Shown: one piece after another, positions 4,463 through 47,275 of the stretch
Layout: each line of letters begins with the position of its first letter
Position numbering within the stretch: the stretch's first letter is position 1
Source: Eledone cirrhosa
Lineage: Eukaryota
Reading direction: 5' to 3'
NCBI GenBank assembly: GCA_964016885.1
Contig: OZ024743.1
Coordinates: 104,532,001 to 104,596,000 of the forward strand
DNA: 64,000 nt
Position numbers and translations under genes: made by a program
Notes under the pieces: generated by a model
Database searches by the model: none
What the model saw: the letters and a program-made list of their open reading frames with translations, nothing else
What the model was told of the DNA's origin: nothing

Positions 4463-4694
4463 ATAATAATAAAATTGAAGACTAAAATCCAAAGAGGGCT
4501 CGATAAGGAAAATATATATCAAATATATAAGAACCGTAGAGCAAATATTTATTAAAATAACAGATTAAAGTTTAAGCAAAGAATCGCTGCTTTCACCCTT
4601 AACGGGATCTTCTGAAACTCCGTTCAGAAGATCCCGTTAAGGGTGAAAGCAGCGATTCTTTGCTTAAACTTTAATCTGTTATTTTAATAAATAT
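4460..4694. mobile_element. Short fold-back element in (TA)n with degenerate HHR core
   Basis: About 72-bp perfect arms (4545-4616 / 4623-4694) around loop ACTCCG; the arm contains CAGAAGA-TCCC-GTTAA-GGGT-GAAA. Confidence 0.75.
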
Positions 4695-4709: not shown

Positions 4710-5258
4710 TAATATAAGATCAAAAGATGGTTAAAAGAGTTCCATGTATTTTATTATGCGCATTTCAAAAACAAATATCATCATGGGATGCTATTTGCGT
4801 TCTCATCAGATAAAATAGGAAGACATGATATGAAGCTTAAAAAATACTTGCGAGCAGTGAAGTATTAAATCAACATATGAAAAATAAAATAAGATGGATA
4901 TATGAGATTGGGAAAAAAAGGAAAGGAAGGGGGGAAGGAAAAGGTAAGGAAGAGGAAGAAAGAATATAATAAGAAAAAAATATATAATAATAAGGAAAGG
5001 ATGACGGAGGAGGAGTATAAGAAGGAAGGAAATTTTATTTTATCTGATGAGAACGCAAATATTATTTTATCTGATGAGAACGGAAATATCATCCCATGAT
5101 GATATTTGTTTTTGAAATGCGCATAATAAAATACATGGAACTCTTTTAACCATCTTTTGATTTTATATTATTTATACTCCAGTCCTATAAACTGTTGAGT
5201 GCTACTTATCCGATATTTGCATTGCTTTATTGTGCTACAATAAAACTCACCTCCTACA
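4710..5258. mobile_element. Short head-to-head copy of Penelope-like family B terminal repeat (pLTR)
   Basis: Homologous to the arms of 21112-23898; HHRs at 4747-4817 (-) and 5063-5133 (+); flanked by (TA)n. Confidence 0.85.
5063..5133 (+). ncRNA. Type-I hammerhead ribozyme (family B)
   Basis: Stem I TATTTTAT/ATAAAATA, core CTGATGA, stem II AAATATCATC-CCAT-GATGATATTT, GAAA, palindromic stem III ATGCGCAT, AUA cleavage triplet. Confidence 0.8.
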
Positions 5259-5547: not shown

Positions 5548-6158
5548 ATGGTGGCTGCCAACTCGTTTTCGAGTACGGCCACTACTTTATATCCATGTAG
5601 GAGAACCCCTACAGGTGCGCTGAACGAGTGTGACTTTTTAGTCCAGCCAGCGACTTGAAAACTCTGGTACAAACACTACACTTGTGACAATTATTGACAC
5701 ATAGTGCTGGGCCCATGGTACCATGTGACGACAAGTGCAGAGAGATCTCCAGATATAAAGCAATACCTGTGCCGTGAAGCTTTTATAGTGAGCAAAGGCA
5801 CTGCACAAAGCCAGTCCCACTCTCTTAACCAAGATGATATTTACCTAAAAGAAGAACAAGTCAACATCATTGGATACCATCAGGGTTGCAGGTGTTATAT
5901 CAGAGTTGTCCTTCTCCTAGAATTCTGCCTTGACAAAGGCTAAGGGGTCATCTCTCCCGGTGATTTTGGATGGCCATTGATTCTTAAGAGCTCCTTTGCC
6001 CTTTGACAGGTTTTGTTTTTAGTCCTACAGGATGTCCAAAGTCACCCTCCTCACCAAGAAACCTTGGTGGGGTTGCCAGTTTAGTCGCCAACGACCCGAC
6101 CATGAGACAGGTTGTACTGGGATACATGTTACCAGTAGCACCAACTGGTGACCTGACA
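5548..6158 (-). mobile_element. Non-autonomous RTE-derived bipartite SINE (about 610 bp)
   Basis: Highly similar inverted copy at 63175-63785; RTE 5'UTR-like CTAGGAGAAGGA(C/A)AACTCTGAT motif; 3' end encodes a C2H2 remnant like RTE ORF C-termini. Confidence 0.75.
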
Positions 6159-6489: not shown

Positions 6490-6829
6490 CTCACACACAC
6501 CAAAGACCACCACTAACAACACCATATATATACATACACATCCAGACAACAACATCACCACCACTAACACACACACACACACACACACACATACACAACA
6601 CACACACAACACACACACACACACACCAAAGACCACCACTACCAACACCATATATACATACACATCCAGACAACAACATCACCACCACTAACACACACAC
6701 ACACACACACAACACACACACAACACACACACACACCAAAGACCACCACTAACAACACCATATATATACATACACATCCAGACAACAACATCACCACCAC
6801 TAGCACACACACACACACACACACAACAC

Positions 6830-6883
<54 letters not shown>

Positions 6884-7309
6884 ACAACACACACACACCA
6901 AAGACCACCACTAACAACACCATATATACATACACATCCAGACAACAACATCACCACCACTAACACACACACACACACACACAACACACACACAACACAC
7001 ACACCAAAGACCACCACTAACAACACCATATATACATACACATCCAGACAACAACATCACCACCACTAACACACACACACACACACACGCACACACACAC
7101 ACAACACACACACAACACACACACACACCAAAGACCACCACTAACAACACCATATATACATACACATCCAGACAACAACATCACCACCACTAACACACAC
7201 ACACACACACACAACACACACACAACACACACACAACACACACACACCAAAGACCACCACTAACAACACCATATATACATACACATCCAGACAACAACAT
7301 CACCACCAC

Positions 7310-7387
<78 letters not shown>

Positions 7388-7679
7388 ACAACACACACAC
7401 ACCAAAGACCACCACTAACAACACCATATATACATACACATCCAGACAACAACATCACCACCACTAACACACACACACACACACACAACACCATACAACA
7501 CACACACACACACACCAAAGACCACCACTAACAACACCATATATACATACACATCCAGACAACAACATCACCACCACTAACACACACACACACACAACAC
7601 ACACACAACACACACACCAAAGACCACCACTAACAACACCATATATACATACACATCCAGACAACAACATCACCACCAC

Positions 7680-7713
<34 letters not shown>

Positions 7714-7738
7714 CACACACACACACACACACACACAC

Positions 7739-7778
<40 letters not shown>

Positions 7779-7857
7779 ACAACACACACACACCAAAGAC
7801 CACCACTAACAACACCATATATACATACACATCCAGACATTAACATCACCACCACTA

Positions 7858-7901
<44 letters not shown>

Positions 7902-8349
7902 CACACACACACACACACCAAAGACCACCACTAACAACACCATATATATACATACACATCCAGACAACAACATCACCACCACTAACACACACACACACAC
8001 ACACACACACAACACACACACACACACACACACACACAACACACACACACACACACACACACACAATACAACACACACACACCAAAGACCACCACTAACA
8101 ACACCATATATACATACACATCCAGACAACTACATCACCACCACTAACACACACACACACACACAACACACACACACACCAAAGACCACCACTAACAACA
8201 CTATATATACATACACATCCAGACAACTACATCACCACCACTAACACACACACACACAACACAACACAATACAACACACACACACACCAAAGACCACCAC
8301 TAACAACACTATATATACATACACATCCAGACAACTACATCACCACCAC

Positions 8350-8382
<33 letters not shown>

Positions 8383-8472
8383 ACAACACACACACACCAA
8401 AGACCACCACTAACAACACCATATATACATACACATCCAGACAACAACATCACCACCACTAACACACACACA

Positions 8473-8522
<50 letters not shown>

Positions 8523-8691
8523 AAAGACCACCACTAACAACACCATATATACATACACATCCAGACAACAACATCACCACCACTAACACACACACACACA
8601 CACACAACACACACACAACACACACACACCAAAGACCACCACTAACAACACCATATATACATACACATCCAGACAACAACATCACCACCAC

Positions 8692-8767
<76 letters not shown>

Positions 8768-9067
8768 ACAACACACACACACCAAAGACCACCACTAACA
8801 ACACCATATATACATACACATCCAGACAACAACATCACCACCACTAACACACACACACACACACACAACACCATACAACACACACACACACACACCAAAG
8901 ACCACCACTAACAACACCATATATACATACACATCCAGACAACAACATCACCACCACTAACACACACACACACACACACACAACACACACACAACACACA
9001 CACCAAAGACCACCACTAACAACACCATATATACATACACATCCAGACAACAACATCACCACCACTA

Positions 9068-9103
<36 letters not shown>

Positions 9104-9212
9104 CACACACACACACACACCAAAGACCACCACTAACAACACCATATATATACATACACATCCAGACAACAACATCACCACCACTAACACACACACACAC
9201 ACACACACACAC

Positions 9213-9243
<31 letters not shown>

Positions 9244-9621
9244 CACACACACACACACACACACACACAATACAACACACACACACCAAAGACCACCACT
9301 AACAACACCATATATACATACACATCCAGACAACTACATCACCACCACTAACACACACACACACACACAACACACACACACACCAAAGACCACCACTAAC
9401 AACACTATATATACATACACATCCAGACAACTACATCACCACCACTAACAACACTATATATACATACACATCCAGACAACTACATCACCACCACTAACAC
9501 ACACACACACACACACAACACAACACAATACAACACACACACACACCAAAGACCACCACTAACAACACCATATATACATACACATCCAGACAACAACATC
9601 ACCACCACTAACACACACACA

Positions 9622-9679
<58 letters not shown>

Positions 9680-9740
9680 AAAGACCACCACTAACAACAC
9701 CATATATACATACACATCCAGACAACAACATCACCACCAC

Positions 9741-9789
<49 letters not shown>

Positions 9790-9801
9790 AAAGACCACCA
9801 C

Positions 9802-9871
<70 letters not shown>

Positions 9872-9930
9872 CACACACACCAAAGACCACCACTAACAAC
9901 ACCATATATACATACACATCCAGACAACTA
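6490..9930. repeat. Compound minisatellite: about 66-bp conserved core plus variable (CA)n spacer, about 28 copies
   Basis: Core CCAAAGACCACCACTAACAACACCATATATACATACACATCCAGACAACAACATCACCACCACTAA alternates with CA tracts. Confidence 0.95.
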
Positions 9931-11194: not shown

Positions 11195-12103
11195 ACAAAA
11201 TAGAGACAGGATCACAATGGAGAAAAAAAATATATATATATATATATATATATTATGTGTGTGTGTGTGTGTATGCGCACGTGCTTGTGTGTGTTTGGGT
11301 GTGTGTGTGTATGCGTGTGTGTGTGTGTGTGTATGTAACCAAAGAACAGCTGAAGAGAAATGGGCCATTGTGAAAATCAAACTCAATCCCCAAATATTCT
11401 TTTGATTTCCCCCCAAAACAAGGTCGCTGTCTCTACAGTTGGCTCTGTGATTGATGATACTAAAATCATGGGTGAGATCCTGTAGAAACAATAATTTTCT
11501 GTTTTCAGTAATCTTGATATGGCTGATCTGAGTTGTACCAGCGATGTTAATCCCCAACACATCATATCAGACATAACGTTTGTCAACCCTGATATCTCAG
11601 CGGCAATAAACAAAATTAAATACAACCCAGCAGTAGGCTCCGATAGGTTTTCTGATAGTGTCCTAAAGGTGTGTTAACATCAACTTGCATCTTCTCTAGC
11701 TAATCTGTGGAGGAACTCACCGAACGCTGGCTATATCCCTGAAAATGTTATGTCCCAGTCTGTCGTTCCAGTTTTCAGAAAGGGAAACAAGTCTTTTGCA
11801 GTGAATTACCGTCCGCTCTCACTCACCCCTCATAACATTAAGGTATTTGGGGTGGTGGTGAGATCACGAATAACTCACTTTCCCAAAAGCAACAATCTGC
11901 TGAACTCCAAACACCATGGGGTCCGTGATGACAGGGACTGTCTAACGCAGCTTCTGCATCACTTTGATGACATCCTAAAAGCTTTGGGAGAGGGCTCCAT
12001 CACTGATGTCATCTACCTTGATTTCAGCAAGGCCTTTGACAGGGTTGATCACAGCATCCTGTTGAAGAGACTATCCAACATTGGTGTCGGTAGAAAGTTA
12101 CTA

Positions 12104-12259
12104 CAGGTAACATTCCATTATAACGAATACAATTATAACACATTTTTTTCAATCCCCGGCCACACGTTCGATGTGTTAGGTCGATCTCGTTATAAAGAAT
12201 TTTTCGTTACAATGTTTTTTTTTATATCCCATGAATTTCGTTATAACGGAATTCCACGG
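12104..12259. mobile_element. Tc1/mariner(pogo)-like MITE inserted in the LINE
   Basis: TIRs CAGGTAACATTCCATTATAACGAA / TTCGTTATAACGGAATTCCACGG with TA duplication; removing it restores the frame KLL*WIKWFVMNR. Relatives at 13662-13800 and 14758-14931. Confidence 0.8.
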
Positions 12260-12400
12260 TATAATGGATCAAGTGGTTCGTTATGAACAGAGCCAACATG
12301 TTGTGGTCGAAGGGATACAATCAAGCTCAGCCAAAGTCAGTAGTGGCGTCCCATAATGCACAGTGTTGGACTCACTTCTCTTCATTATTTATATCAATGA

Positions 12401-12509
12401 GTTCAAATCCCGCCGAGGTTGACTTTGCCTTTCATCCTTATGGGGTCGATAAAATAAAGTACCAGTAATGCACTGGGTGATTGCTGGCCTTGTGCCTAAA
12501 GTAGAAACA
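12401..12509 (+). mobile_element. 5'-truncated tRNA-derived SINE with 17-bp target-site duplication
   Basis: ATTATTTATATCAATGA at 12384-12400 and 12510-12526; B-box GTTCAAATCC. Confidence 0.9.
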
Positions 12510-14018
12510 ATTATTTATATCAATGACATTATTGACGTCATCAAGCACAGCAGCATAAGAATCTTTGCAGATGATTCCAAACCCCAGAAGGTCATCAACA
12601 GAGTGGAAGAGAGGCCGTACCTTCAATCGGATCTACTTGTTGTTATCCAATAGCCCCCCCCCCCCCCAAAAAAAAAAAATCAACAGAAAACAAAACAAAT
12701 AAAACAAAATACCAACATGCTTTTAAATTAAGATAAATTTCAACTAATCCACTTCGGAAAATTCGGAAAAGAGGATGCTCTGAAGTTTCCACATTCTCTT
12801 TCCTCGGGTGAAACCCTCGTGGTATCCAACAACACCTTGGAGTAATTGTTGATAGCAACTTAAGTTGGAATACTCATATAAATAGCAAAGTTGCCTTTGA
12901 ATACTGTTGTCCCTTGTGATCTCCTCACACGAAACAAAGCATTACGAACACTGAAGCACTACAGAGGTAAATTACAAAAAACAAAAAAAAACAACAAACA
13001 ACCAAACAGACAGACGGTATGACAGGCCTTGACTATTGGAGCTGAGAACCCAAACCCTACTTGCTCCAACGCTGCCGTGAGCACAACACCATCTGTATGA
13101 TGTGGAAAATATTCCATCAACACTCCTCAAATTATGTTGGCGTCAACTTTAAATTTCCTCCAAAGCTTAGTCTCCGTATTATCCACCCATTACAAAATAT
13201 CAAACTCGCACCTCATAATAACGATACGACACAACTACTTCACCCCAGCTGGCCCCGCTCTCATTAATATCATACCAAAATACACCAGAACAGAAACAGA
13301 TACTATAAAATTCAAAATGTCCTTGGACAAAGTCATCCAAGAAATTCCAGATAAACACCATACACCCGGATATGTCTCCGAAATCAATAACTCTTTATTA
13401 GAGTGGGCTATGGTGCCTGAGGTGTGAATATGATCCCAAAGTCTTTGTCATGAGGTGCTATTAAGCCAGACACATGGCCTGGCCCAATACTGGCCGAAAC
13501 CTATCAAAGTTATATATATATATATATATATAACTTTGATAGGTTTCGGCCAGTATTGGGCCAGGCCATGTGACTGGCTTAATAGCACCTCATGACAAAG
13601 ACTTTGGGATCATGATTCACACCTCAGGCACCATAGCCCACTCTAATAAAGAGTTATTGATTATAAAAAAGATTCGCTGTAATGAATAATTCTTTATATC
13701 GAGATCGACCTAACACATTGAGCGTGTGTCCGGCAATTGAAAAAATTTCGTTATACTGAAATTTTTTTTATAATGGTATTCGTTATAACAGAATTTTACC
13801 TATATATATATATTAGAAAGTGAGGTTTTTTTTACAAAATGAAAAATAACCGAGGTGTCCTACACGAGTGAAAGTATAAAGAAAAAAAAGATGAAATCGA
13901 AAATACAACTGGAGTCTTATTTAAAAAAAATATATATATATTTATTTGGTTCCTTTACCGGTTTCGCAGTTCTGCTTTTCAAAAGTAGAGTTGAGATGGA
14001 GGGTCTGTGGTTTTTCTC

Positions 14019-14115
<97 letters not shown>

Positions 14116-14127
14116 GGTGTAACATAT

Positions 14128-14160
<33 letters not shown>

Positions 14161-14161
<1 letters not shown>

Positions 14162-14669
14162 GTAGATAAATCTACCAAAATATACGGTAGTGTCCAATCC
14201 GTATGAAGAACTCAATGTAATCCAAATATCATGAAAAGAGAAGATGTATTCAAATTTTTTTCGATGAAAAACACAGTAAAACAGAGTCAAGATAAATTAA
14301 TAAAAATAATGAATAAAAACAAAGAAACAGTTCCTTATATTAAAAAAATAATCATTTTACGATCGTTTCTAGGATATATATGTGTGTGTTGGTATGTATA
14401 TCATATAGATCTATGTAAAATTTTTACAAACTATCAGAGGGAATATACATACCTACACACATATATGCTATCTTCAGAAATAATCTGAACACAGTATATA
14501 TATGTGTAGGTATGTATATTCCCTCTGATAGTTTGTAAAAATTTTACATAGATCTATATGATATACATACCAACACACACATATATATCCTAGAAACGAT
14601 CGTAAAATGATGAATTTTTTAATATAAGGAAATGTTTCTTTGTTTTTATTCATTATTTTTATTAATTTA
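14161..14669. mobile_element. Short head-to-head copy of Penelope-like family F pLTR
   Basis: Arms 14161-14485 (-) and 14495-14669 (+) match 27011-27200 and 28660-28980; flanked by (TA)n. Confidence 0.85.
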
Positions 14670-14672
14670 TAT

Positions 14673-14757
<85 letters not shown>

Positions 14758-14761
<4 letters not shown>

Positions 14762-14929
14762 TAAAATTCGGTTATAACGAATACCATTATAAAAAATGTT
14801 TCAGTATAACGAAATTTTTTCAATTGCCGGCCACACGCTCAATGTGTTAGGTCGATCTCGATATAAAGAATTTTTCATTACAGCGAATCTTTTTTATACC
14901 CTGTGTATTTCGTTATAACGGAATTTCAC

Positions 14930-14931
<2 letters not shown>
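14758..14931. mobile_element. Tc1/mariner-like MITE (same family as 12104-12259)
   Basis: Ends TTCGTTATAACGGAATTTCACTG-TA; TIR at the left end. Confidence 0.75.
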
Positions 14932-14994: not shown

Positions 14995-15333
14995 GTGAAG
15001 CGAGAGACTCTTAGTTTTCATTAAGACATCTCTCTAGGAGAAAGTCACTTTCATGTAAAACCTGCGAATTCATTTGCATCCAATGATGTAGACCAGTTCT
15101 TCTTTTAGGGCAAATGCATTCGATGTTCAGAGAGTGGGATTTGCCCCGTGAAAAGCCTTTCCTCTCTTAAAAAAAACTTCAAGCACAGGCATGGCTCGAT
15201 ATGTAACATTTTTGGGGATGTATGGTATTGCTGGCCATAGGCAAGTCCATAGCAGGACTAAAAAGTCACGTCCGTGATACTCAGGCTTAAGTATCAAGCC
15301 ATGGCATTACACGAAATCATGTAGCAGCCATCA
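14993..15333 (+). mobile_element. Shorter RTE-derived SINE subfamily
   Basis: Shares CTAGGAGAA, CATCCAATGATGT, GGACTAAAAAGTCAC and the GCAGCCATCAT 3' end with the 610-bp element; inverted relative at 25886-26219. Confidence 0.65.
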
Positions 15334-15398: not shown

Positions 15399-15911
15399 AT
15401 AGAGGTGTAACACACGAGTTGTGATATATTGGTAAAAGGAAAAGAAAATGCTGACAAATTGTTCCCAGTGAAAAATAGTTTAATTAGGAATAAGTAAAAA
15501 TTAGTAATAAGTATTGGTTAGTATTCAGTTTTGGTTTTACATTTTTACCGGTTGCGCATTTCTAATGCTTTTCAAAAATAATTTTGAGATAGAGCGCCCG
15601 TGATGTTTGCTCTAATCTGATTAGAGCAAACATCATATCTATATATATATATTTACCATCATATATATATATATATAAGTGGAAGCTTAGTAAAATCGAA
15701 GCTTTGGCTGTGGCCAAGCAAAGTCGACATACAATAAGGAATGAGTAGCAAAGCACTCAAGATTAGAGTAATAACATTACGTTTAAATAGCTTGACAAAT
15801 TGAAAATTGCGGTAGGCAAAACCCAACCATACAATACCAAAACAACGAAAGAACTAATCAGGTTAAAACAACATATATATATATATTTATATATATGTAT
15901 ATATATATATG

Positions 15912-16360
15912 TACATTCAGTTATTAGGAGTATTCCAAAGCTTGGTAGAACAAGTTGTGAGGAAAGTTCTCAACATACGTTAAGGTGACTCGACAGGTTG
16001 GTAGGGATTCTGTAGTGGAAACACGAACAAACGAGGAGTGTAATCAAAGAAGAGAAATAGGACGAAGGTAAACAATTACAAAAGAATTTAATCCACGTAT
16101 TTACAATTGTTTCATCAGAATTTCAGTCCATTATTGCTACACTATGTTATAATAGGCAATCAATTTTTTTTTTTTTTTTTTCATTTCCTAAGGTCATTCC
16201 AACTTTGTATTTTGAAAATTCGGATGCCACAGTATCTTTCTTGATTGCCTATTATAACATAGTGTAGCAATAATGGACTGAAATTCTGATGAAACAATTG
16301 TAAATACGTGGATTAAATTCTTTTGTAATTGTTTACCTTCGTCCTATTTCTCTTCTTTGA
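15912..16360. mobile_element. Fold-back element in (TA)n with HHR 3' half
   Basis: Inverted arms at about 16023-16163 / 16241-16360; GAAAC-AATT-GTA palindromic stem III; core degenerate. Confidence 0.65.
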
Positions 16361-16406
16361 TATATATATATGTATATAAATATGTGTATATATATATATA
16401 TGTGTG

Positions 16407-16790: not shown

Positions 16791-17360
<570 letters not shown>

Positions 17361-17364
<4 letters not shown>

Positions 17365-17638
17365 GGAGGTGATTTTTATTGTAGTACAATAAAGCATTGC
17401 AGATATCGGATAAGAAGCACTCTACAGTTTGTAGGACTGGAGTATACATAATATATAAGATCAAAAGATGGTTTTTTTATATGTTGATTTAAAACTGCAC
17501 TATCCACAAGTGTTTTTTAACCTTCATATCATGTCCTCCTATTTTATCTGATGAAAACACAAATGTTATTGCATGATGATATTTGTTTTTGAAATGCGCA
17601 TAATAAAATACATGGAACTCATTTAACCATCTTTTGAT

Positions 17639-17643
<5 letters not shown>
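17361..17643. mobile_element. Short head-to-head copy of family B pLTR
   Basis: Minus arm with tail (17361-17473) joined to a plus arm containing the HHR at 17540-17610. Confidence 0.8.
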
Positions 17644-18595
<952 letters not shown>

Positions 18596-21111: not shown

Positions 21112-21115
<4 letters not shown>

Positions 21116-23898
21116 GGAGATGAGTTTTATTGTAGCACAATAAAGCAATGCAAATATTGGATAAGTAGCACTCAACAGTTTATAGGACTGGAGTATAAAT
21201 AATATAAAATCAAAAGATGGTTAAAAGAGTTCCATGTAGTTTATTATGCGCATTTCAAAACAAATATCATCATGGGATGATATTTGCGTTCTCATCAGAT
21301 AAAATAGCGAGACATGATATGAAGCTTAAAAAACACTTGCGAGCAGTGAAGTGTTAAATCAACATATGAAAAATAAAATTAGATGGATATTATGAGATTG
21401 GGAAAAAAAGAAAAGGATGGGGGGAAGGAAAAGGTAAGGAAGTGGAAGAAAAAATATAGATAGAAGAAAAAAATATAATAATAAGGAAAGGATGACGGAG
21501 GAGGAGTATAAGAAGGAGGAGAAAATTAGTGAGAGAGAGAGAGATAACCTTTAATACTGAGAAACACTGTCTCACAGAGAAAAAAAAACCGTTGTAAGAT
21601 AATACATAATTTTTAAAAAATTAAGAAATTAAAAGTTAATGAGGTTTATGAATGGTGATGCTTATGATTAAAGAAAAAGGAATTAAGAATACTATTTATT
21701 TAAGGTTTATATATTGAAGGGTTTAATAAGATGTTAATAAATGTATTATTAAAATAAAATATATTAAGAAGATAAGGTTAAATGAATTATGAACTTAGAA
21801 GAATTAATTAGGGTCCGAGTTTGTTTCAATATATTGTAATAGGAAAAAGTAAATAATAGATTTAATACGAGGATGGAAGGAGAGAAGAAAGAAAAAATTC
21901 AAGGAAGAAAAAATATATAACGTCAAAAAAATATGTTTACAAAATTTCTCTAATGGTAATATTAGTATATATTAAAAATAAAAATTTGTATGGCCGAGAA
22001 TATAAGGAAAATGCTATAGTGAGTTATAAGATGAATTAAGAAGTAATTGAGAAGTAAAAGTTGCAGATTAAAGATTAGAAATTAAAAAAGAAGAAAAATA
22101 GGGGACCGCTATCTCAACATTATCTCAAAACATAATACTAAAATATTAAGTAATAAATCATATCCATCCAACACTGAGCGTCATAATAATAACAATAGTA
22201 AGCCCGACGTCAATGTTAACTCTAGGCTGGATTCCGTAAATTTAAATACGACGTCAAACGTAACTTTGTCGAATGTTCATAATACCAATCTAAATCAAGA
22301 AACTTTAGCACCTATCGTAAGTAACTTCTCCAATTCAATTCCTTCTATAAATAATACTGGGGCACTTGCTAATAACTCTGGTAATTACTCTAATCGTAAT
22401 TGCAATTGCCCTATTAGAACTAAATGTCCTCTTACTAACCAATGTCTTGATAAACATTTAGTGTATGAATGTAAGGTTATAACTGGTACTAATTCTTTTA
22501 CCTATTTTGGTTCCACTTCCACTTCCTTTAAGGCAAGATTTTATAATCTCAATTCTTCTTTTAAATAACAACTTAAAAGAACTAACACAACACCCTCAGA
22601 ACACATATGGTCCTTAAAGGACAAAAATATTAACTACAACATTTCCTGGAGAAAGGTTTGCAGCACCTCTCCTTACCTTAATTCTTCCCTATCCAGAACA
22701 TGTAATCTCTGCCTAGCGGAGAAATTTACCATTATCTCTAATTTTAATTCTATAATAAATAGACGTACGGATTTATTTTCGCTCTGCTTGCATAAATCCC
22801 ATAGAACTTTCCATAAAGTATACAGCTAATATCTTACTACCTAATTAGTTTAAAATCTTTTTTTCTCAAACACTTTTATATTTTTTACAAATATACCCAT
22901 CTTTCTACCTTATTTCAGTATATTATATAATATTACTCATACTATGTCGTTAGCGGTCCCCTATTTTTCTTCTTTTTTAATTTCTAATCTTTAATCTGCA
23001 ACTTTTACTTCTCAATTACTTCTTAATTCATCTTATAACTCACTATAGCATTTTCCTTATATTCTCGGCCATACAAATTTTTATTTTTAATATATACTAA
23101 TATTACCATTAGAGAAATTTTGTAAACATATTTTTTTGACGTTATATATTTTTTCTTCCTTGAATTTTTTCTTTCTTCTCTCCTTCCATCCTCGTATTAA
23201 ATCTATTATTTACTTTTTCCTATTACAATATATTGAAACAAACTCGGACCCTAATTAATTCTTCTAAGTTCATAATTCATTTAACCTTATCTTCATTCAC
23301 CTTATCTGCTTAATATATTTTATTTTAATAATACATTTTAATAAATTCCTTTTCGCACATCTTATTAAACCCTTCAATATATAAACCTTAAATAAATAGT
23401 ATTCTTAATTCCTTTTTCTTTAATCATAAGCATCACCATTCATAAACCTCATTAACCTTTAATTTCTTAATTTTTTAAAAATTATGTATTATCTTACAAC
23501 GGTTTTTTTTTCTCTGTGAGACAGTGTTTCTCAGTATTAAAGGTTATCTCTCTCTCACTAATTTTCTCCTCCTCTCTCATCCTTCCTTCTTATACTCCTC
23601 CTCCGTCATCCTTTCCTTATTATTATATTTTTTTCTTCTATCTATATTTTTTCTTCCACTTCCTTACCTTTTCTTTCCCCCTTTCCTTTCCTTTTTTCCA
23701 ATCTCATAATCCCTCTAATTTTATTTTTCATATGTTGATTTAACACTTCACTGCTCGCAAGTGTTTTTTAAGCTTCATATCATGTCTCGCTATTTTATCT
23801 GATGAGAACGCAAATATCATCCCATGATGATATTTGTTTTTGAAATGAGCATAATAAAATACATGGAACTCTTTTAACCATCTTTTGATTTTATATTA
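21112..23898 (+). mobile_element. 5'-truncated Penelope-like element (Naiad-type), family B, with about 0.9-kb inverted pLTRs
   Basis: Arms 21200-22111 and 22951-23898 are inverted repeats; the centre encodes the endonuclease; HHRs at 21237-21306 (-) and 23791-23861 (+); (TA)n on both sides. Confidence 0.9.
22113..22829 (+). pseudogene. Penelope-like linker + zinc finger + GIY-YIG endonuclease, one in-frame TAA
   Basis: IISKHNTKIL...CNCPIRTKCPLTNQC (CxCx5Cx5C)...LVY...TYFG..FKARFYN...*...IWSLKDKNINYNISW...CNLCLAEK...CLH in one frame, with TAA at 22566. Confidence 0.85.
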
Positions 23899-23950: not shown

Positions 23951-24780
<830 letters not shown>

Positions 24781-25885: not shown

Positions 25886-26219
25886 TGATGGTAATGGCTG
25901 CAAACTCGATTTCGAGTAATGCCATGAATATCACAGACTGGCTTTCTAGTCCTGATAGGGACTTGCCTATGGTCAGCAATACAATGCATTGCAAAAAAAT
26001 GTCACATATCGAGCCATGCCTGTGCTTGAAGCTTTTTTAAGTGAGGAAAGGCTTTGCATGGGCCAATCCCACTCTCTGAGCATCGAATACATTTGCAAAA
26101 AAAAAAAAAAAAAAGTACTGGTCTACATCATTGGATGCAAACGAAGTCGCAGGTTTTATATCAGAGTAACCTTCTCCCAGAGAGATATCTTAATGAAGAC
26201 TAGAAGTTTTTTGCTCCAC
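25886..26219 (-). mobile_element. Shorter RTE-derived SINE subfamily copy
   Basis: Reverse-complement homologue of 14993-15333. Confidence 0.65.
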
Positions 26220-26314: not shown

Positions 26315-26394
<80 letters not shown>

Positions 26395-27010
26395 TGAGAT
26401 AAGCGGAGCAAGTAAAATTCAAACAATTTCTTAAAATAAATTAAAAGTCATAGACACCCTATATATTTCCAGAGGTACTTAGTACCTGTGGGGATATTAA
26501 TCTCCTTTTATATTTTCTCCGTTATGTAGAGAATAAATCTGTTGTTTTATTTAGCTGCTATTTTTAGTGGCCTGATAGACAACACGTCTATGTTTACTTC
26601 CTGCTTCTACTAAGGGCTGGTTCATGCATAGGTCAAATTTACGGCCTCATTCGATCCTGTGCTAGCTGGCAGGTGGCAATATATTTTGCTGTTCTTGGGA
26701 CTTCTGTCCTAGGAAAGGAAAATGGTCCCTGATAATCCGAACATTTCCCTTGGAGATCCCTAGGATCTCCAATCTTTTGTAAAGTGAAACCGTCGGTAAA
26801 AGCAAATGGATTAGGTAAATATTTAAATTATATTTTTTTAATTTATTTTAAGAAATTGTTTGAATTTTACTTGCTCTGCTTATCTCACTTTTATAGTTTT
26901 GGTATGTCAAATTAATGCCATGGAACAACCACCGTATCATAGACACCCTATATATTTCCAGGGGTACTTAGTACCTGTGGGGATATTAATCTCCTTATAT
27001 ATATATATAT

Positions 27011-28980
27011 ATAAATTAATAAAAACAATGAGTAAAAACAAAGAAACAGTTCCTTATATTAAAAAATTCATCATTTTACGATCGTTTCTAGGATATATAT
27101 GTGTGTGTTGGTATGTATATCATATAGATCTATGTAAACATTTTACAAACTATCAGAGGAAATATACATACCTACACATATATATGCTGTCTTCAGAAAT
27201 AATGATATTTGTTTATTGAAAAAACCCAACAAAGATTTAATATAATAGGTCTGTTTGGGAACAGGTTTTACCTAAAATATACAACAAAATATAAGTGCCT
27301 GGGAACAGGTTTTACCTAAAATATACAACAAAATATACAACAAAATATAAGTGCCTACAATGCATATAAATGTAAAAAAACCATGAATATACCACCAACA
27401 CATCAAACTAACCATAATACTAAAATATACCGCAACAAACCACCATCTCCTTCACATATAACAAGTCGAGTAAATTCCACACCAAATTTGACTAACTTCC
27501 TGATATAATATTCACGAATCGTTGTAACTGTAGAAACAAAGCAAATTGCCATTAAAAGGAAATTGTCTTATTAATAACATAGTATATAAATGTAAAATTA
27601 GCACTAAGGACTCAACTTATTCATATATAGGAGCTACTTCTAACCAATTTAAAGTAAGATTTAATACCCACAAACATAGTTTTAAAAATGCCGTATTAGC
27701 AATACAACATCCTTGGCTGAAATAATTAATAATTATAGAAAAAAGAATATCGATTATAACCTGACCTGGAGTGTGCTCAAAAGGGCCACCCCTTATCAAA
27801 ATAACAGATATGAGTGTAGATTATGTTCCCAGGAACTTTTTGAAATAATGAAATCTAAGGATATCCTATTAAATAAGCGACAAGAATTAATTATATCGTG
27901 CAATCATAGAATTAGAAAAACTTTCAAATATTATAAACCTAATTAATATACACCTTACACTTATATTTTACAAATTATTATAATTAGTTTTTTAATTTAG
28001 TTAACCTATAATTAGAATTTTACTACTGAGAACTTCATAATTTTATTTCCCTTTTACAGCTCTCTTTTCCTAAAATTAATACCTATAAGTATACATATAA
28101 ACTATTTAAATTTCCTGTTATGAATCTAAATTCCTTGTAGTCTATATAAGTTGGTTATTTCTCACTAATACATTTATCCCATTGTTTTCCTTCGTTTTTA
28201 ACAACATACTTTAATAACATCTAACTCTTATTTATCACATCTATATGGACTAATATACATTTATCCCTATAAGTATACCTATCAATTAACTTAATTTAAT
28301 TTCTTATTATAGATCTAAATTCCTTGTGTTTTAAATAAGATTGGTATTTCTCACTAACACATTTACCCTAAAATTTTATTCTCCTTCGATTTTAACATTA
28401 GCATTATTCTTTAATAACATTAAATTTTCGTGTACCTTTCACCGGCTTGACCTCTTTTCATCCCAAAGTAATCTTTTCTTTCAAAGTATTCTTTCCATTC
28501 AAAACTGAAGCCTGCATTCCTCTACCCCTAAATTAAATTTCTACTACTACTATTCTATCAACTTGACCACTAACTACTTTTCTATTGGTCAATTCAAAAC
28601 CTGTTCCCAAACAGACCTATTATATTAAATCTTTGTTGTTTTTTTTCAATAAACAAATATCATTATTTCTGAAGACAGCATATATATGTGTAGGTATGTA
28701 TATTTCCTCTGATAATTTGTAAAATGTTTACATAGATCTATATGATATACATACCAACACACACATATATATCCTAGAAACGATCGTAAATGATGAATTT
28801 TTAATATAAGGAACTGTTTCTTTGTTTTTATTCATTGTTTTAATTAATTTATCTTGACTGTTTTCCTGTGATTTTCACCTAAAAATTTTTTGAATATATC
28901 TTCTCTTTTCATGATATTTGATTACATTGAGTTCTTCATACGGATTGGACACAACCGTATATTTTGGTAGATTTATCTAC
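27011..28980 (+). mobile_element. 5'-truncated Penelope-like element (Naiad-type), family F, with inverted pLTR
   Basis: Arms about 27011-27269 / 28596-28851 plus tail; frameshifted endonuclease 27523-27946 (CNCRNKANC..GNC, IVY...YIG, CRLC..E, LLNKRQE..CNH); HHRs at 27068-27205 (-) and 28660-28796 (+). Confidence 0.9.
28660..28796 (+). ncRNA. Type-I hammerhead with about 100-nt stem II
   Basis: TCATTATTT-CTGAAGA-[ATATATATGTGT..GGTATGTATAT...ATATACATACC..ACACATATATAT]-GAAA-CGATCG-TA-AATGATGA. Confidence 0.7.
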
Positions 28981-31039: not shown

Positions 31040-31475
31040 ATAATAATAAATGTAATCTGAGTTTTTCGAATATTAATAATAACATTCGATTTGTTTGCAA
31101 TTATGCAAATAAACCTCAATTTTAAAGCCATGTCAGTAGAATGAACCCTTCATTCTTGCTCTTGTGTTGGCATGTCTGCTAATATGCAAATCAGGCCGAT
31201 CAGTCACTGTGTACTTTTGAAAATAGCATATATTTTCACTAGCTCTGACAGTTTGGCATGTGAACAGTGAGCTGTACTGATGAAGGGTGATACCCAGAAA
31301 CATTAGTGTCTGCTGTTCTGTTGGCATGCCAACACAAGAGCAAGAATGCAGGGTTCATTCTACAGACATGGCTATAAAATTGACCCTTGTTTGCATAATT
31401 GCAAACAAATCAAATGTCATTATTAATATTCGAAAAACTCAGATAACATTTATTGTATTCAGCCATGTAGAGTGA
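31040..31475. mobile_element. Fold-back element with diverged arms and central HHR
   Basis: Arms about 31040-31175 / 31323-31460; HHR 31262-31318: GTA-CTGATGA-AGGGT-GAT-ACCC-A-GAAAC-ATTAGT-GTC-TGC; fragment at 61311-61432. Confidence 0.75.
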
Positions 31476-31531: not shown

Positions 31532-31534
<3 letters not shown>

Positions 31535-31818
31535 CGAAGGAAGTGTGGTAAGGAACCAGATGGACCACAACGCACCAGAGTACTCGATTCTTTGGCTAGT
31601 AGAGTGGGTAATAGGAAAAGAGTCAGGACCCCGACAGCTGAGCGAGCTCAAGCCGTTTCGACGGCTATTTCTGGACGCAATAGTCCAGAAATAGCCGTCG
31701 AAACGGCTTGAGCTCTGCCGTCGGGGTCATACTTTTTCCTATTTCCCACTCTACTATCCTAAATATTGAGTACTCTGGTGCGTTATGGTCCATCTGGTTC
31801 CTTACCACAATTCCTTCG

Positions 31819-31821
<3 letters not shown>
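31532..31821. mobile_element. Fold-back element in (TA)n (arms about 140 bp, loop GCAATA)
   Basis: Arms are identical for about 33 bp at the centre and diverged distally; fragment at 32770-32832. Confidence 0.75.
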
Positions 31822-33280: not shown

Positions 33281-33281
<1 letters not shown>

Positions 33282-34184
33282 CGGAAAAAATGAAACGAAA
33301 TTTCATTTCTCACTCTTAGTACGGCTGTTACTTAAATATAAGTATGTATACGTACATACACATGTATACAGACGTACAGTAGTATGTATATATACATACA
33401 CACATGCACACATATATATATGTACGTATGGATTCACCGAACATTTATTATAATGCTCGGTGTGTTTGTAAACAAACATCCCGAATTAAGTCATACAGTG
33501 TCTAGCAACCATCGTTGCTCATTTGTTCAACACTGACAAAGGAACGCTGTACTAGTTTCAAGCTTATTAGCTATCGTCAACAACGTATACCTTCCTGCCA
33601 GATGATTGAACGTCTGAAAGCATAAACTTTCCCTATGCATATTAACGGCTGAATCCATACGTACATATATATATATATATGTGTGCATGTGTGTATATAT
33701 ATATATATATACATACTACTGTACGTCTGTATACATATGTGTATGTACGTATACATACTTATATTTAAGTAACAGCCGTACTAAGAGTGAGAAATGAAAT
33801 TTCGTTTCATTTTTTCCGTTTATCGTTTTCGGTACCCCGGCCGATTAACTCACTCGATATGCAAATTAGGCTGCTCGGCCGTTAATATGCATAGGTAAAG
33901 TATATGCTTTCAGACGTTCAATCATCTGGCAGGAAGGTATACGTTGCTGACGATAGCTAATAAGCTTGAAACTAGTACAGCGTTCCTTTGTCAGTGTTGA
34001 ACAAACGAGCAACGATGCTTGCTAGACACTACGGCTTAATACTGGATGTTTGTTTACAAACACACCGAGCATTATAATAAATGTTCGGTGAATCCATACG
34101 TACATATATATATGTGTGCATGTGTATATATATATATACATACTACTGTACGTCTGATTACATATGTGTATGTACGTATACATA

Positions 34185-34188
<4 letters not shown>
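33281..34188. mobile_element. Retrozyme-like family E: minus partial unit joined head-to-head to a plus 1.2-mer
   Basis: 33281-33649 (-) and 33650-34188 (+, period 439); HHR 33941-33983 intact, HHR 33544-33586 has a C3U core change. Confidence 0.85.
33941..33983 (+). ncRNA. Minimal type-I hammerhead ribozyme (family E)
   Basis: ACGTTG-CTGACGA-TAGCT-AATA-AGCTT-GAAAC-TA-GTA-CAGCGT; stem I 6 bp, palindromic ACTAGT stem III, GUA triplet. Confidence 0.85.
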
Positions 34189-35890: not shown

Positions 35891-35979
35891 CGATAACAGT
35901 TATGGCATATACGCCTGTATGCTTGTATATAAGTTCTTATCGTTTATCAACATATTTTTTCACACAAAGAGCCTCGTTT

Positions 35980-37970
35980 CGGTGGATTGGCAGTATCGGT
36001 AGAGGGTCGGACGCCATGCTTTGCAACATAGAGTTACGGCCCTTTACGGCCCGAGTTCAAATTCCGCCAAGGTTAATTTTGCCTTTCATCCTTACGGTGT
36101 CGACAAAATAAAGCACCAGTAATGCACTGGGGTAATTACTGGCCTTGTGCAAAAAGTAGAAACAATTATCACAAATGCTTTCCTAGGGATCACTGTAATG
36201 TGTTGAGGTTGGCTTAGTCCCCATTATTAGTATTGCGGTGGATTGGCAGTATCGGTAGAGGGTCGGACGTCATGATTTGACGCATAGAGTTACGGCTCTT
36301 TATGATCTGTGTTCAAATCTCGTCGAGATTAACTTTGCCTTTCATCCTTACGGGGTCGATAAAATAAAGTACCAGTCACGCATTGGGGTGGATTTAATCG
36401 ACTTATCCCTCACCTAAAATTGCAGGCCTTGTGCCTATTTAAGAAACCATTATTAGTATTGGCAGTATAGGTAGAGAGTCGGACGCCATGCTTTCCAGCA
36501 TAGTTACGTCCCTTTACGATCTGAGTTCAAATCCCGCCGAGGTTGACTTTGCCTTTCATCCTTACGGAGTCGATAAAATAAAGTACCAGTAATGCACTGG
36601 GTAATTGCTGGCCTTGTGCCTAAAGTAGAAACCATTATTAGTATTGCGGTGGATTGGTAGAGCCGTTCGAGGGTCGGAAGAAATGCATTGCAGTATTTAG
36701 TTACGACTTTCTGCTTTTACATTTCAAATCCCGTTGAGGTTAATTTAACCTTCCATACTTCTATTGTCTATAAAATAAAGTACCAGTAACGTAATCGACA
36801 GTAATTTAATCGACTTCTCCCCCAAATTGTTGGTCTTGTGCCTAAATCAGAAACCATTATAGGTACAGCGTCGGATACCATACTTTTCAATATAGAGTTA
36901 TAGCTCTTTACGTTCTAAATTAAAATCCTGCCGAGGTTAGCTTTGCCTTTTCCAACCCCCCAAATTGCTGGCCTTGTGCCTATAGTAGAAACATTTATTC
37001 TTATTGTGGATTGGCAGTATCGGTAGAGCGTCAGATACCATGCTTTGTGGCATAGAGGTACGGCCCTTTACGTTCTGATTTCAAATCCTGCCGAGTTTCG
37101 ATTTGCCTTTCATTCTTACCGGGCCGAATAAACAAAGTACCAGTAATGCACTGGTGTCGATTTAATCGATTTTCCCCCACCCAACAGAAAATTATTGGCC
37201 TTGTGACTATTATTGTTATTATTATTATATCTCCCTGAGACACTATCGTTCCGCATTACAGACTGATTAATGAATAACAACAACAATAATTATATCTATT
37301 TTTAGCACAAGGTCAGCAATTATCGCAGTGCATTACTGGTACTTGCACTGCGATAATCGCTGGCCTTGTGCCAAAAGTAGAAACAAATATTATTATAATA
37401 ATTGTTTCTACTTTGGGCACAAGGCCAGTAATTCCTCCAGTGTATTACTGGTACTTTATTTTATTGACCCCGTAAAGATGAAAGGCAAAGTAAACCTCGG
37501 CGGGATTTGAACTCAGAATGGCAAGGGCTGTAACTCTATGCGTCAAAGCATGGCGTCCGACCCTCTACCGATACTGCCAATCCACCGCCAATAATAATAA
37601 TTGTTTCTACTTTAGGCACAAGGCCAGCAATTATCCAGTATATTACTGGTACTTTATTTTATCGACCCCGTAAGGATGAAAGGCAAAGTTAACCTCGGCG
37701 GGATTTGAACTCAGACTGTAAAGGGACGTAACTATGCTAGAAAGCATGGTGTCCAACCCTCTACCGGTACTGCCAATTCACCTGGATTGGCAGCACCGGT
37801 AGAACGCCAGACACCATGCTTTGCAGCATAGAGTTATGGCCCTTTCCGTTCTGAGTTCAAATCCCGCCGAGGTTAACTTTGCCTTTCATCCTTACGGGGT
37901 CGATGAAATAAAGTACCAGTAATGCATTGGGGGTAATTACTGGCTTTGTGCCAAAAGTAAAAATAATTAT
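35980..37970. mobile_element. Cluster of about 11-12 tRNA-derived SINEs in both orientations
   Basis: Repeated A-box-like TGGCAGTATCGG, B-box GAGTTCAAATCC, core GCCTTTCATCCTTACGGGGTCGATAAAATAAAGTACCAG and (ATT)n tails. Confidence 0.9.
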
Positions 37971-38204
37971 TATCATTGTTATTCATTAATCAGTCCGCAA
38001 TGCGGAACGGTAGTGTGTCATGGAGATAAACATAATAATAGCAATTGCAGTAACAGCAGCTACAACAACAACGATAATAGTATTAGCAATAGCAACTACA
38101 AACCGTGTCTGATTAGATTAACATGAAACAATAATTCTTATAGCGTTAAGAAGAAACAGTACATATATCGAGACGCAATCACGAAATTTGAGCTTCCATA
38201 TATA

Positions 38205-40720: not shown

Positions 40721-41652
40721 GCACGCGCTTGAAGGCTGGAGAGAACAGAAGGGAAACGGAGTACTTTAGGCTCTACTATTTGGGGCAAATGTAGGCTTAT
40801 TTTCACGGTAATTTTTACTATTTCTTGTTTACTTTTTAAACTTATTTTTATTTTGCTCGGGAAACGAAGAGAATATTCATCTATAAAACAGATAAATTAT
40901 TCCAATTATCATTATCTATGTTAGTAATGAGCCTTAAGGGAGCAATTTGAGCAGGCCTCATACTAACTCGCCTACTATTAACACTATTCCCAGAAGGGTG
41001 GTTGATTGGCAGAATCGTCAGAGAGACGAACAAAATGTCTTGGGATGTTGCTTTGAGATCAACTTTGCTTTTTACTCTTCTTGGGGGTGATAAAATGGTT
41101 TCTTATATAGGCACAAGGCCAGCTCTTGGGGTGATAACATACGAGTAAAATACCGAGGGTTGAGCTAATCAATTGCTTCCTCCTCCTCTTCCCCTCATAC
41201 AGTCGGCCTTCCGTTTAATGTCAACAGAAGTCGTCTTTTGATAATTCTTTCCCTATCTTGTTCTTATACATACATATAAAATTACAGCATTTCTCATATT
41301 CTCTCCGCAGCTACACGTGTCTGTGGAATGCTCAGGCACTTACAGGTTAACGTCACGAGTAGGCTGTTCTGTTGATCAAACAACTGGAACACTCATCGAC
41401 TGTGTGTATGTATGTGTGTGCATGTGTATATGTATGTCTATATGTATGTGTGTGCATGTGTATATGTATGTCTATATGTATGTGTGTGTGCAAGTGTATA
41501 TGTATGTCTATATGTATGTGTGTGTGTGTGTGTGTGTGCAAGTGTATATTTATGTGTGTAACTATATCTGGTAGAAAGACTATGTTAAAGTGTATCAAAT
41601 GTTTCTCTGTTGATGTAGATGTCGTGAAACTCAAGACAAAAGTACATACCTG

Positions 41653-44600: not shown

Positions 44601-46085
44601 GGTGATGGTGGTGGTGGTGGTGGTTGTGGTTGTTGTTGGTAGTGGTGATGATGATGGTGGTGGTGGTTGTGGTTGTGGTTGTTGTTGGTAGTGGTGGTGA
44701 TGGTGATGATGATGGTGGTGGTTGTGGTTGTGGTTGGTAGGGGTGATGATGATGGTGGTGGTGGTGGTTGTGGTTGTGGTTGTTGTTGGTAGTGGTGGTG
44801 ATGGTGGTGGTGGTGGTGGTTGTGGTTGTTGTTGGTAGTGGTGATGATGATGGTGGTGGTGGTGGTTGTGGTTGTGGTTGTTGTTGGTAGTGGTGGTGAT
44901 GGTGATGATGATGGTGGTGGTTGTGGTTGTGGTTGGTAGGGGTGATGATGATGGTGGTGGTGGTGGTTGTGGTTGTGGTTGTTGTTGGTAGTGGTGGTGA
45001 TGGTGGTGGTGGTGGTGGTTGTGGTTGTTGTTGGTAGTGGTGATGATGATGGTGGTGGTGGTGGTTGTGGTTGTGGTTGTTGTTGGTAGTGGTGGTGATG
45101 GTGATGATGATGGTGGTGGTGGTGGTTGTGGTTGTGGTTGTTGTTGGTAGTGGTGGTGATGGTGGTGGTGGTGGTGGTTGTGGTTGTTGTTGGTAGTGGT
45201 GATGATGATGGTGGTGGTGGTGGTTGTGGTTGTGGTTGTTGTTGGTAGTGGTGGTGATGGTGATGATGATGGTGGTGGTTGTGGTTGTGGTTGGTAGGGG
45301 TGATGATGATGGTGGTGGTGGTGGTTGTGGTTGTGGTTGTTGTTGGTAGTGGTGGTGATGGTGGTGGTGGTGGTGGTTGTGGTTGTTGTTGGTAGTGGTG
45401 ATGATGATGGTGGTGGTTGTGGTTGTGGTTGTTGTTGGTAGTGGTGATGATGGTGATGATGATGGTGGTGGTTGTGGTTGTGGTTGGTAGGGGTGATGAT
45501 GGTGGTGGTGGAGGTTGTGGTTATGGTTGGTAGTGGTGATGATGGTGGTGGTGGTTGTGGTTGGTTATGGTGGTGTGGTTGTGGTTGTTGGTAGTGGTGA
45601 TGATGGTGGTGGTGGTCGTGGTTGGTTATGGTGGTGGTTGTGGTTGTTGGTAGTGGTGATGATGGTGGTGGTGGTCGTGGTTATTGTTGGTGGTGGTGAT
45701 GATGGTGGTGGTGGTTGTGGTTGGTTATGGTGGTGGTTGTGGTTGTTGGTAGTGGTGATGATGGTGGTGGTGGTGGTGGTGGTTGGTGGTGGTAGCGGTT
45801 GTCTGGTTATGGTGATGGTGGTTGTGGCAGTAGTGGTTGTAGTGGTAGTGATTATTGTGGTGGTGGTTATGGCGGTGGTAGTTGTAGCGTTGATTTTAAT
45901 ACTGACAATATCATATGTACTTTTTATGGTGTTGGTGGCGGCGGTGATAGCGGCGGTTATAGTTGATGGTGTTGTTGTTGTTGATGGCTATGTTAGTCAT
46001 GGTTGTGGTGGTGTGGTGGTTGTGGTTAATGTTGATAAAGAGGATGTGGATGGAAATATTAGTGTTGATGACGATGCCAGTAACT

Positions 46086-46143: not shown

Positions 46144-46317
46144 AAATTGAATACGATAGCAATAATAATTGTTTCTGCTTTTGGCACAAGGCCAGCAATT
46201 ATCCCAATGCATTACTGGTACTTTATTTTATCGACCCCGTAAGGATGAAAGGCAAAGTTAACCTCGGCGGGATTTGAACTCAGATCGTAAAGGGCGAAAT
46301 CTGTAATAATGATTATG

Positions 46318-46817: not shown

Positions 46818-46821
<4 letters not shown>

Positions 46822-47269
46822 AGTGGGAAATGAAATTTCGTTTCATTTTTTCCGTTTATCGCTTTCGGTACACCCGGCCGATTAACCCACTCGATATGCA
46901 AATTTGGCTACTCAGCCGTTAATATGCATAAGGTAAGTAAATACGTTCAACAATCTGGCAGGAAGGTATACGTTGCTGACGATAGCTAATAAGCTTGAAA
47001 CTAGTACAGCGTTCCTGTGTTAGTGTTGAACAAACGAGCAACGATGGTTGCTAGACACTACGGCTTAATATGGGATGTTTGTTTACAAACACACCGAGCA
47101 TTATAATAAATGTTCGGTGAATCCATACGTACATATATGTGTGCATGTATGTATATATATATACATACTACTGTACGTCTGTATACATATATGTATGTAC
47201 GTATATATACTTATATTTAAGTAACAGCCGTACTAAGCGTGGGAAATGAAATTTCGTTTCATTTTTTCC

Positions 47270-47275
<6 letters not shown>
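46818..47275 (+). mobile_element. Retrozyme-like family E, 1.1-mer (period 416) in (TA)n
   Basis: About 40-bp terminal direct repeat; HHR 46970-47012; ATGCAAAT near 46896. Confidence 0.85.

Follow-up and report, generated by a model that had tools for sequence, protein, structure and literature searches.

Several described systems produce DNA that resembles the structure reported here. In yeast, fold-back insertions, which extend one end of a break, range from 2 to about 150 bp (most are shorter than 14 bp), carry overlaps of 0 to 5 bp (median 2), require Pol delta and end joining, and have been primed across a 41-nt loop, as described in PMC11724301. Insertions of the SD-MMEJ and Pol theta type arise by snap-back priming within the same end, followed by unwinding and joining; the templates reported for flies lie within about 30 bp of the break, and priming from a single base is described as typical in worms (PMC5728401, PMC5068794), with Pol theta inserts typically reaching no more than about 30 nt (PMC11724301). 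Tandem duplications in worms, attributed to sister-templated extension of an end, its release and joining at a short overlap, are direct and span 1 kb to 1 Mb (PMC7368036). Penelope-like elements are biased towards (TA)n targets and carry an inverted truncated copy of themselves (PMC8557442), and in vitro work with one purified Penelope-like protein has shown cutting and extension on both strands of AT-rich DNA (PMC11167929). Finally, inverted triplications (ODIRA, DUP-TRP/INV-DUP) place inverted extra copies at short inverted repeats, giving three copies of a contiguous segment with the middle one inverted (PMC4689423, PMC10766183, PMC4352052).

We analysed a window (the whole stretch of DNA under study) of 64 kb of repeat-rich animal DNA containing 109 TA tracts of at least 5 units, and focused on the local feature at 13382-14931. 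Within it lies a 268-bp insert, 13533-13800, which consists of inverted copies of both flanks beside a TA repeat and contains 0 untemplated bases. The observed order is X-TA-X'-Y'-TA...TA-Y, where X is the 3' end of a LINE, Y is a MITE and the primes denote inverted copies; read on the minus strand, the insert joins Y to X and is thus a circular permutation of the ancestral unit. The preliminary description had recognised a 270-bp segment made entirely of inverted local copies; the segment is real, and its limits are here corrected to those of the unique insert. It is most likely the scar of a single break at which both chromosome ends copied themselves and were then rejoined, and it is one neutral event with no evident function. 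The features of the locus are as follows.

11486-13510, plus strand: decayed LINE (reverse transcriptase and C-terminal region; Pfam RVT_1, tblastn), 5' boundary unmapped
12104-12259, plus strand: second copy of the MITE family, used as the outgroup
13382-13510, plus strand: X, the template of the left mirror, comprising the last codons of the LINE open reading frame and its 3' UTR
13511-13532: TA tract 1, 22 nt, centre of a spacer-free palindrome and putative site of the break and of priming
13533-13662, minus strand: X', 130-bp inverted copy of X (1 substitution, 1 indel)
13662: joint of the two mirrors, one shared base, none added
13662-13800, minus strand: Y', inverted copy of the 139 bp with which the MITE begins after the TA (right terminal repeat lacking; 5 substitutions)
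13801-13813: TA tract 2a, 13 nt
13814-14022, minus strand: Z, 209-bp repeat fragment, probably a Penelope-like terminal repeat (a weak call)
14023-14161: TA tracts of 87 and 38 nt flanking a 14-bp fragment (14110-14123)
14162-14668, minus strand: W, 507 bp, truncated Penelope-like insert with its own inverted arm
14668-14759: TA tract 2b, 92 nt
14758-14931, plus strand: Y, MITE flanked by TA at either end, its terminal inverted repeats imperfect; the mirror template is 14760-14898

The insert shares with the yeast fold-back insertions its make-up as the reverse complement of break-adjacent DNA, an inverted repeat at the end that can serve as primer, and a capture overlap within the 0-5 bp range; unlike them, it involves both ends, copies 130-139 bp, uses a microsatellite as primer and is fixed in an animal assembly (PMC11724301). 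By analogy, it may well be a two-sided form of the one-sided insertions demonstrated in yeast. The putative same-end snap-back priming, unwinding and joining also recall SD-MMEJ and Pol theta repair as described in PMC5728401 and PMC5068794, although the arms are four to five times longer than typical Pol theta inserts (PMC11724301). The worm duplications offer a comparable sequence of extension, release and short-overlap joining, but are direct, whereas the product here is inverted and short (PMC7368036); by our reasoning, aborted repair of that kind would yield a short inverted product only by backward invasion of (TA)n. With Penelope-like insertions the locus has in common the (TA)n target and two head-to-head arms, but the arms of those insertions are element sequence mirroring each other, whereas here they mirror the flanks and contain no Penelope sequence (PMC8557442, PMC11167929). 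The inverted triplications share the inverted extra copies at short inverted repeats, whereas the present locus has two copies of each arm and an insert that is circularly permuted (PMC4689423, PMC10766183, PMC4352052). Among the titles and abstract openings covered, an incomplete sample of the literature that leaves the supplements of PMC11724301 outside its scope, we found no description of a two-sided flank mirror at (TA)n.

The left template belongs to a LINE which we take to be CR1-like. Its reverse transcriptase is recognised by Pfam (RVT_1, E 1.6e-9), whereas the C-terminal piece matched no significant Pfam family. In tblastn comparisons with two relatives, the element shows 64% and 59-65% identity, with 2 and 1 in-frame stops and one frame shift. 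Of 35 protein matches to the reverse transcriptase piece, the best, and the only one bearing an organism name, comes from Octopus sinensis (71% identical across 57% of the query), which suggests an octopus-like source. The LINE is interrupted by the MITE copy at 12104-12259 and by a SINE-like repeat at 12383-12518. X (13382-13510) and the reverse complement of X' (13533-13662) align over 129 columns with 1 substitution and a 1-base indel (98.4% match; blastn E 8.6e-61), which bears out the earlier claim of a left mirror of the LINE 3' end with 2 differences. The palindrome formed by the pair is centred at 13521|13522, without a spacer, inside the 22-nt TA tract, and its arm measures 141 nt from the centre. 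Its DNA folding energy is -169.4 kcal/mol (z -33.9), a value that none of 100 shuffles equalled. A microRNA was considered for the palindrome and rejected, as the best Rfam models, mir-3688 (75.9 bits, gathering score 84) and mir-8489 (57 bits, gathering score 99), are generic hairpin matches.

On the right, Y, presumably a MITE of the Tc1/mariner type, is 174 bp long, and Y' stops 33 bp short of its end and therefore is devoid of the right terminal repeat. Y (14760-14898) and the reverse complement of Y' (13662-13800) differ by 5 substitutions in 139 positions with 0 indels (96.4% match; blastn E 1.6e-62), a count that the preliminary description had given approximately. Its further statement that the mirror is closer to the neighbouring MITE than to the copy at 12104 also holds, with 3.6 compared to 17.4 differences per 100: the 12104-12259 copy is separated from Y by 16 substitutions and 2 indels over 121 columns, and from Y' by 18 substitutions and 3 indels, or 15-17 differences per 100 overall. 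In addition, a 17-bp segment common to Y and Y' is absent from the 12104 copy, and the first base of the left terminal repeat is T in both Y and Y' but C in the 12104 copy and at the right end of Y. Two of the five differences between Y and Y' are derived in Y', two lie in the stretch that the outgroup lacks, and the remaining one differs among all three sequences, so that two hits are needed there. The difference between the two arm pairs (2/129 versus 5/139) is insignificant (p 0.45).

Thus far, comparisons of the mirrors identify them as copies of local flanks, as far as the window tests this: within its 64 kb, X' and Y' match only their own flank, plus the 12104 copy in the case of Y', the neighbours are the closest copies of both, and a second copy of the LINE end was not found. 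Both halves could instead be of non-local origin, either as inserts of young subfamilies or as RNA copies made in trans at TA by a Penelope-like reverse transcriptase and then trimmed and fused. The window is indeed rich in two-armed head-to-head inserts between TA tracts (8 measured), two of them with GIY-YIG remnants, and the right-hand tract itself holds a two-armed Penelope-like insert; moreover, the comparison set in the window amounts to 1 other MITE copy and 0 other LINE ends. Yet X' matches at 98.4% a LINE that is decayed, Y' stops before the right terminal repeat and has the same altered first base as the neighbouring MITE, and insertion next to a near-identical copy would be needed for two different families, which makes a closer non-local source very improbable. 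The insert was also considered as a mobile unit in its own right (a MITE or foldback transposon) and rejected, given that the ends of 13533-13800 are unrelated and the joined unit is single-copy in the 64-kb window. None of the best 150 of 203 listed Rfam matches reached the gathering score.

Fold-back chimeras are a known read artefact, and one formed at the TA tract during sequencing could have entered the assembly. Complex inverted structures are reported to trouble assemblies (PMC8557442). However, 6 substitutions separate the arms, as does 1 indel that lies outside a homopolymer, and one of the templates lies 959 bp away; with substitutions making up 6 of the 7 differences, the divergence points to age rather than read error. 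The neighbouring inverted inserts, too, span 0-11% arm divergence, as real age differences would. An artefactual origin is, of all the explanations weighed here, the least credible.

The 959-bp gap between Y' and Y consists of TA tracts of 13, 87, 38 and 92 nt together with Z, the 14-bp fragment and W. The 14-bp fragment (14110-14123) matches the end of a repeat at 15394, and the closest relative of Z in the window is 15544-15608 (77% over 65 bp). Z contains a hammerhead-like motif (by eye), the folding of which is no better than that of shuffles (z -0.26, 74/200 as good). W aligns with the end of the element at 27.0-29.0 kb over 318 columns with 18 substitutions and 5 indels, and its arms (14294-14478 and 14484-14668) differ by 7 substitutions in 185 positions. 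Compared with two family copies, all 7 are private to one arm (4 and 3) and hence arose after insertion. The preliminary description proposed that later insertions had split the right-hand pair. The divergence of W (7/185) is indistinguishable from that of the mirror (7/268; Fisher p 0.58, or p 1.0 for 4/170 when the 15 joint-side bases are left out), so that insertion after the mirror is possible but unproven. If the rate based on an octopus distance of 0.09 for 25 My applies, the mirror would be roughly 3.6 My old (1.5-7.5) and W roughly 5.3 My old (2.1-10.8) (PMC13282606); adjacent arms may also be homogenised, in which case both would be older. A later insertion is, furthermore, unneeded, since a right 3' TA end that folded onto the 92-nt tract and looped out Z and W would give the same order.

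To explain this product, we infer a break in the self-complementary (TA)n after which both 3' ends primed backwards, copied 130-140 nt and were end-joined, a reading to which we assign a probability of about 50%. The order of the pieces, their local identity and the joint are read directly from the DNA, while the break, the priming, the enzymes and the timing relative to Z and W are reconstructed from them. A two-ended break would have occurred in the (TA)n tract between the dead LINE and the MITE. Since the reverse complement of (TA)n is again (TA)n, backward pairing with a TA tract would be open to each 3' end, by folding on its own strand or by wrong-way invasion of the sister chromatid; the backward sister-tract invasion is an equal variant, which would ease release of the new strand. 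Both ends would then be extended by 130-140 nt across their own flank and released, and the new ends would be joined almost blunt, with 1 shared base, and the gaps filled. If Z and W were already present, the right end would have primed on the 92-nt tract on the MITE side, over a loop of ~0.9 kb. Given the typical length of Pol theta inserts, Pol theta by itself is a poorer fit than a processive polymerase with subsequent end joining.

In favour of the two-sided backward priming, each mirror begins exactly at a self-complementary TA tract, and the arms are of nearly equal length (130 and 139 bp; P 0.034 under a random position of the tract in a duplicated unit, a post hoc test), which speaks for a process that affected both flanks of a single site. 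At the same time, these lengths fall in the upper tail of those described for yeast fold-back insertions (PMC11724301), and by that analogy two simultaneous extensions near the limit should be rare. The double snap-back of the preliminary description is therefore retained in part: priming at TA and an ancestral LINE-(TA)n-...-MITE order are the simplest reading, but the product fits other routes as well. The final order is identical under three rival routes, which counts against singling out the double fold-back. The Y/Y' site that needs two hits and the lack of a one-sided mirror at any other tract among the 125 usable flanks also speak against it.

In one of these routes, a single nascent strand would have switched templates without any two-ended break, making a U-turn in the TA, copying X backwards, jumping to the MITE on the same strand, copying this as far as its TA, realigning in a TA tract and resuming. 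Short-range switches that reverse orientation are reported to be frequent in human and yeast (10.1101/2020.03.06.980458), and the route works with or without Z and W in place. It needs three switches, however, the middle one with an overlap of 1 base, and offers no reason for the equal arm lengths; we regard it as improbable. The 1-base overlap at 13662 is itself uninformative, because an overlap of at least 1 base occurs by chance at 47% of the 5041 possible joints.

The left palindrome bears on another route, in which a cruciform at the TA tract was cut into two hairpin-capped ends that were nicked ~140-150 nt from their tips, the resulting giant P-nucleotides being joined. The palindrome is free of a spacer, and its arm of 141 nt from the centre is near nucleosome length (147 bp). 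This route accounts for both arms and their similar lengths in a single event, and cleavage of an AT/TA cruciform to two hairpin-capped ends has been modelled (PMC12972899). Against it, the outcomes described in that source are deletion or restoration rather than long mirrors, and fragility in yeast needed (AT)23 or longer (PMC12972899), compared with 11 units (22 nt) in the central tract today, although its length is unstable and nearby tracts measure 87 and 92 nt. In the literature covered, we found no matching description of long inverted duplications from hairpin opening, and the route fails if Z or W predate the mirror. Such an origin is unlikely, without being negligible.

The TA tracts of the window were surveyed with a scan of the 218 flanks of the 109 tracts, 125 of which were usable after masking; the scan needed similarity within the 70 bases next to a tract of at least 5 units and, missing some inserts, was not exhaustive. 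It returned 7 local pairs (within 3 kb), namely the 2 arms of the present insert and 5 that are arms of inserts or multicopy repeats. By orientation, 3 pairs face outward (the two arms and one inside a multicopy repeat at 46.8-48.7 kb), 1 is direct and belongs to the same repeat family, and 3 face inward and are arms of inserts. No one-sided flank mirror was found at the other tracts among the 125 usable flanks, so the double flank mirror stands as 1 event in 109 tracts.

The survey also bears on a route through duplication, in which the 289-bp X-TA-Y unit was duplicated head to tail and then inverted between two TA tracts acting as inverted repeats; integration of a small X-TA-Y circle backwards into a TA tract would be its one-step equivalent. 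The two-step model agrees with the observed sequence at 422 of 429 columns, and the exceptions are the arm differences already described; yeast provides documented cases of template switching that inverts the spacer between inverted repeats (PMC8604942). However, it needs two events, the yeast spacers reported there are 2-5 bp and not 268 (PMC8604942), and the near-central position of the TA tract has the probability of 0.034 given above for a random unit. Outside multicopy repeats, no direct duplication of unique flanks across a TA tract was detected in the window (125 usable flanks, a small sample). Under this route, Z, the 14-bp fragment and W must also all have arrived after the duplication. 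We consider it unlikely, to the same degree as hairpin opening.

Penelope-like elements provide a further candidate source of the break. The element at 27.0-29.0 kb carries a GIY-YIG remnant (Pfam E 0.0047, below the curated cut-off), and a similar remnant is seen by eye at 22.1-22.8 kb, whereas the other 3 of 4 putative nuclease pieces matched no significant Pfam family. In the 8 two-armed inserts measured, the arms differ by 0 to 11 per 100, and Penelope-like inserts of this kind explain most of the other palindromes in the window. The scar could accordingly belong to a genome-wide class of abortive Penelope insertions, in which the GIY-YIG nuclease cut both strands of the TA tract and the primed ends used their own flanks, not element RNA, as templates before being joined head to head, in the geometry of the ordinary Penelope-like inserts nearby. 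This possibility is suggested by the activity of the purified protein on both strands (PMC11167929) and by the adjacent tract, which holds at least 1 Penelope-like insert of indistinguishable age (7/185 versus 7/268). Against it stand the single case in 109 tracts and the lack of Penelope sequence within the insert, and we rate it as rather unlikely.

If the abortive insertion were true, octopus-like genomes would carry many TA-centred mirrors of host DNA, which would be a natural record of priming and joining at both ends of Penelope targets and would give rise to new long palindromes. Taken as one neutral scar amid repeats, the insert matters little, and its value lies in the search pattern. 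Because a self-complementary tract primes in either direction, a (TA)n break can yield four products: a direct duplication, a double mirror and two mixed forms. Their genome-wide ratio would be telling: an excess of mirrors would indicate fold-back on the own strand, equal frequencies of all four would indicate direction-blind sister invasion, and direct forms far in excess with mixed forms absent would indicate duplication followed by inversion. A TA-rich genome such as the present one would supply these four-class counts, which would also show whether long AT/TA tracts, which are known fragile sites, give rise to palindromes that are inherited through animal germlines, and whether the breaks are due to Penelope-like nucleases.

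Several other features of the window were recorded along the way. The Penelope-like insert at 21113-23891 has long inverted arms around an 840-bp spacer with a broken GIY-YIG-type C-terminus; the inner 325 bp of its arms are identical, compared with 7 substitutions and 3 indels in an outer 267 bp, a pattern suggestive of recent conversion between the arms. Two Penelope-like families are discernible, in which the arms begin at two fixed positions of the element end and either arm can be the long one. The offset of the arm start is 131-132 nt in the family of 14162-14668 and 27014-28980 (2 inserts) and about 94-96 nt in that of 4717-5257, 17362-17640 and 21113-23891 (3 inserts). The 'tail' described for Penelope-like elements is 30-40 bp (PMC8557442, PMC11167929). 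The 131-nt offset equals the length of X' numerically, with no link established between the two. A match to the type I hammerhead ribozyme at 48187-48231 (31.7 bits, short of the gathering score of 34; E 6e-4) sits in the spacer of the inverted arms 46820-47272 and 48374-48739, and related copies occupy 33281-34186.

Further palindromic or two-armed inserts at TA tracts lie at 4549-4690, 15602-15635, 16043-16361, 16911-17226, 31045-31454, 31534-31819, 47315-47540 and 57561-57666. Their arm divergence is 0 to 11 per 100 where measured, several have hammerhead-like motifs (by eye), and they are probably truncated Penelope-like inserts. At 26390-26446, a 57-bp inverted copy of 26836-26892 is followed by a 59-bp direct repeat (26448-26506/26937-26995), the whole lying between two TA tracts; the segment 26390-26995 resembles a small retroelement in partial tandem, one end of which is inverted.

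Among the dispersed repeats, the family that includes 12383-12518, which we take to be a SINE, has copies also at 24340-24477, 35977-38045, 46149-46295, 50203-50398, 52081-52288, 53735-54528, 55442-55649 and 61427-61632; these are mostly 80-97% alike and are clustered, in tandem and in inverted orientation, at 36-38 kb and at 53.7-54.5 kb. A 606-bp element occurs twice in opposite orientation (5550-6155 and 63178-63783, 96.5% identical) with TA tracts on both sides; its older relatives lie at 14995-15283 and 25925-26219. A 101-bp direct repeat without mismatches is present at 17762-17862 and 18306-18406, 444 bp apart, its family being represented also at 57561-57769. Long degenerate minisatellites extend over 2071-2775, 6567-9928 and 41651-45879, and include a 39-bp unit in 18 copies (97%) as well as multi-kilobase CA-rich and TGG-rich arrays with extreme strand skew.
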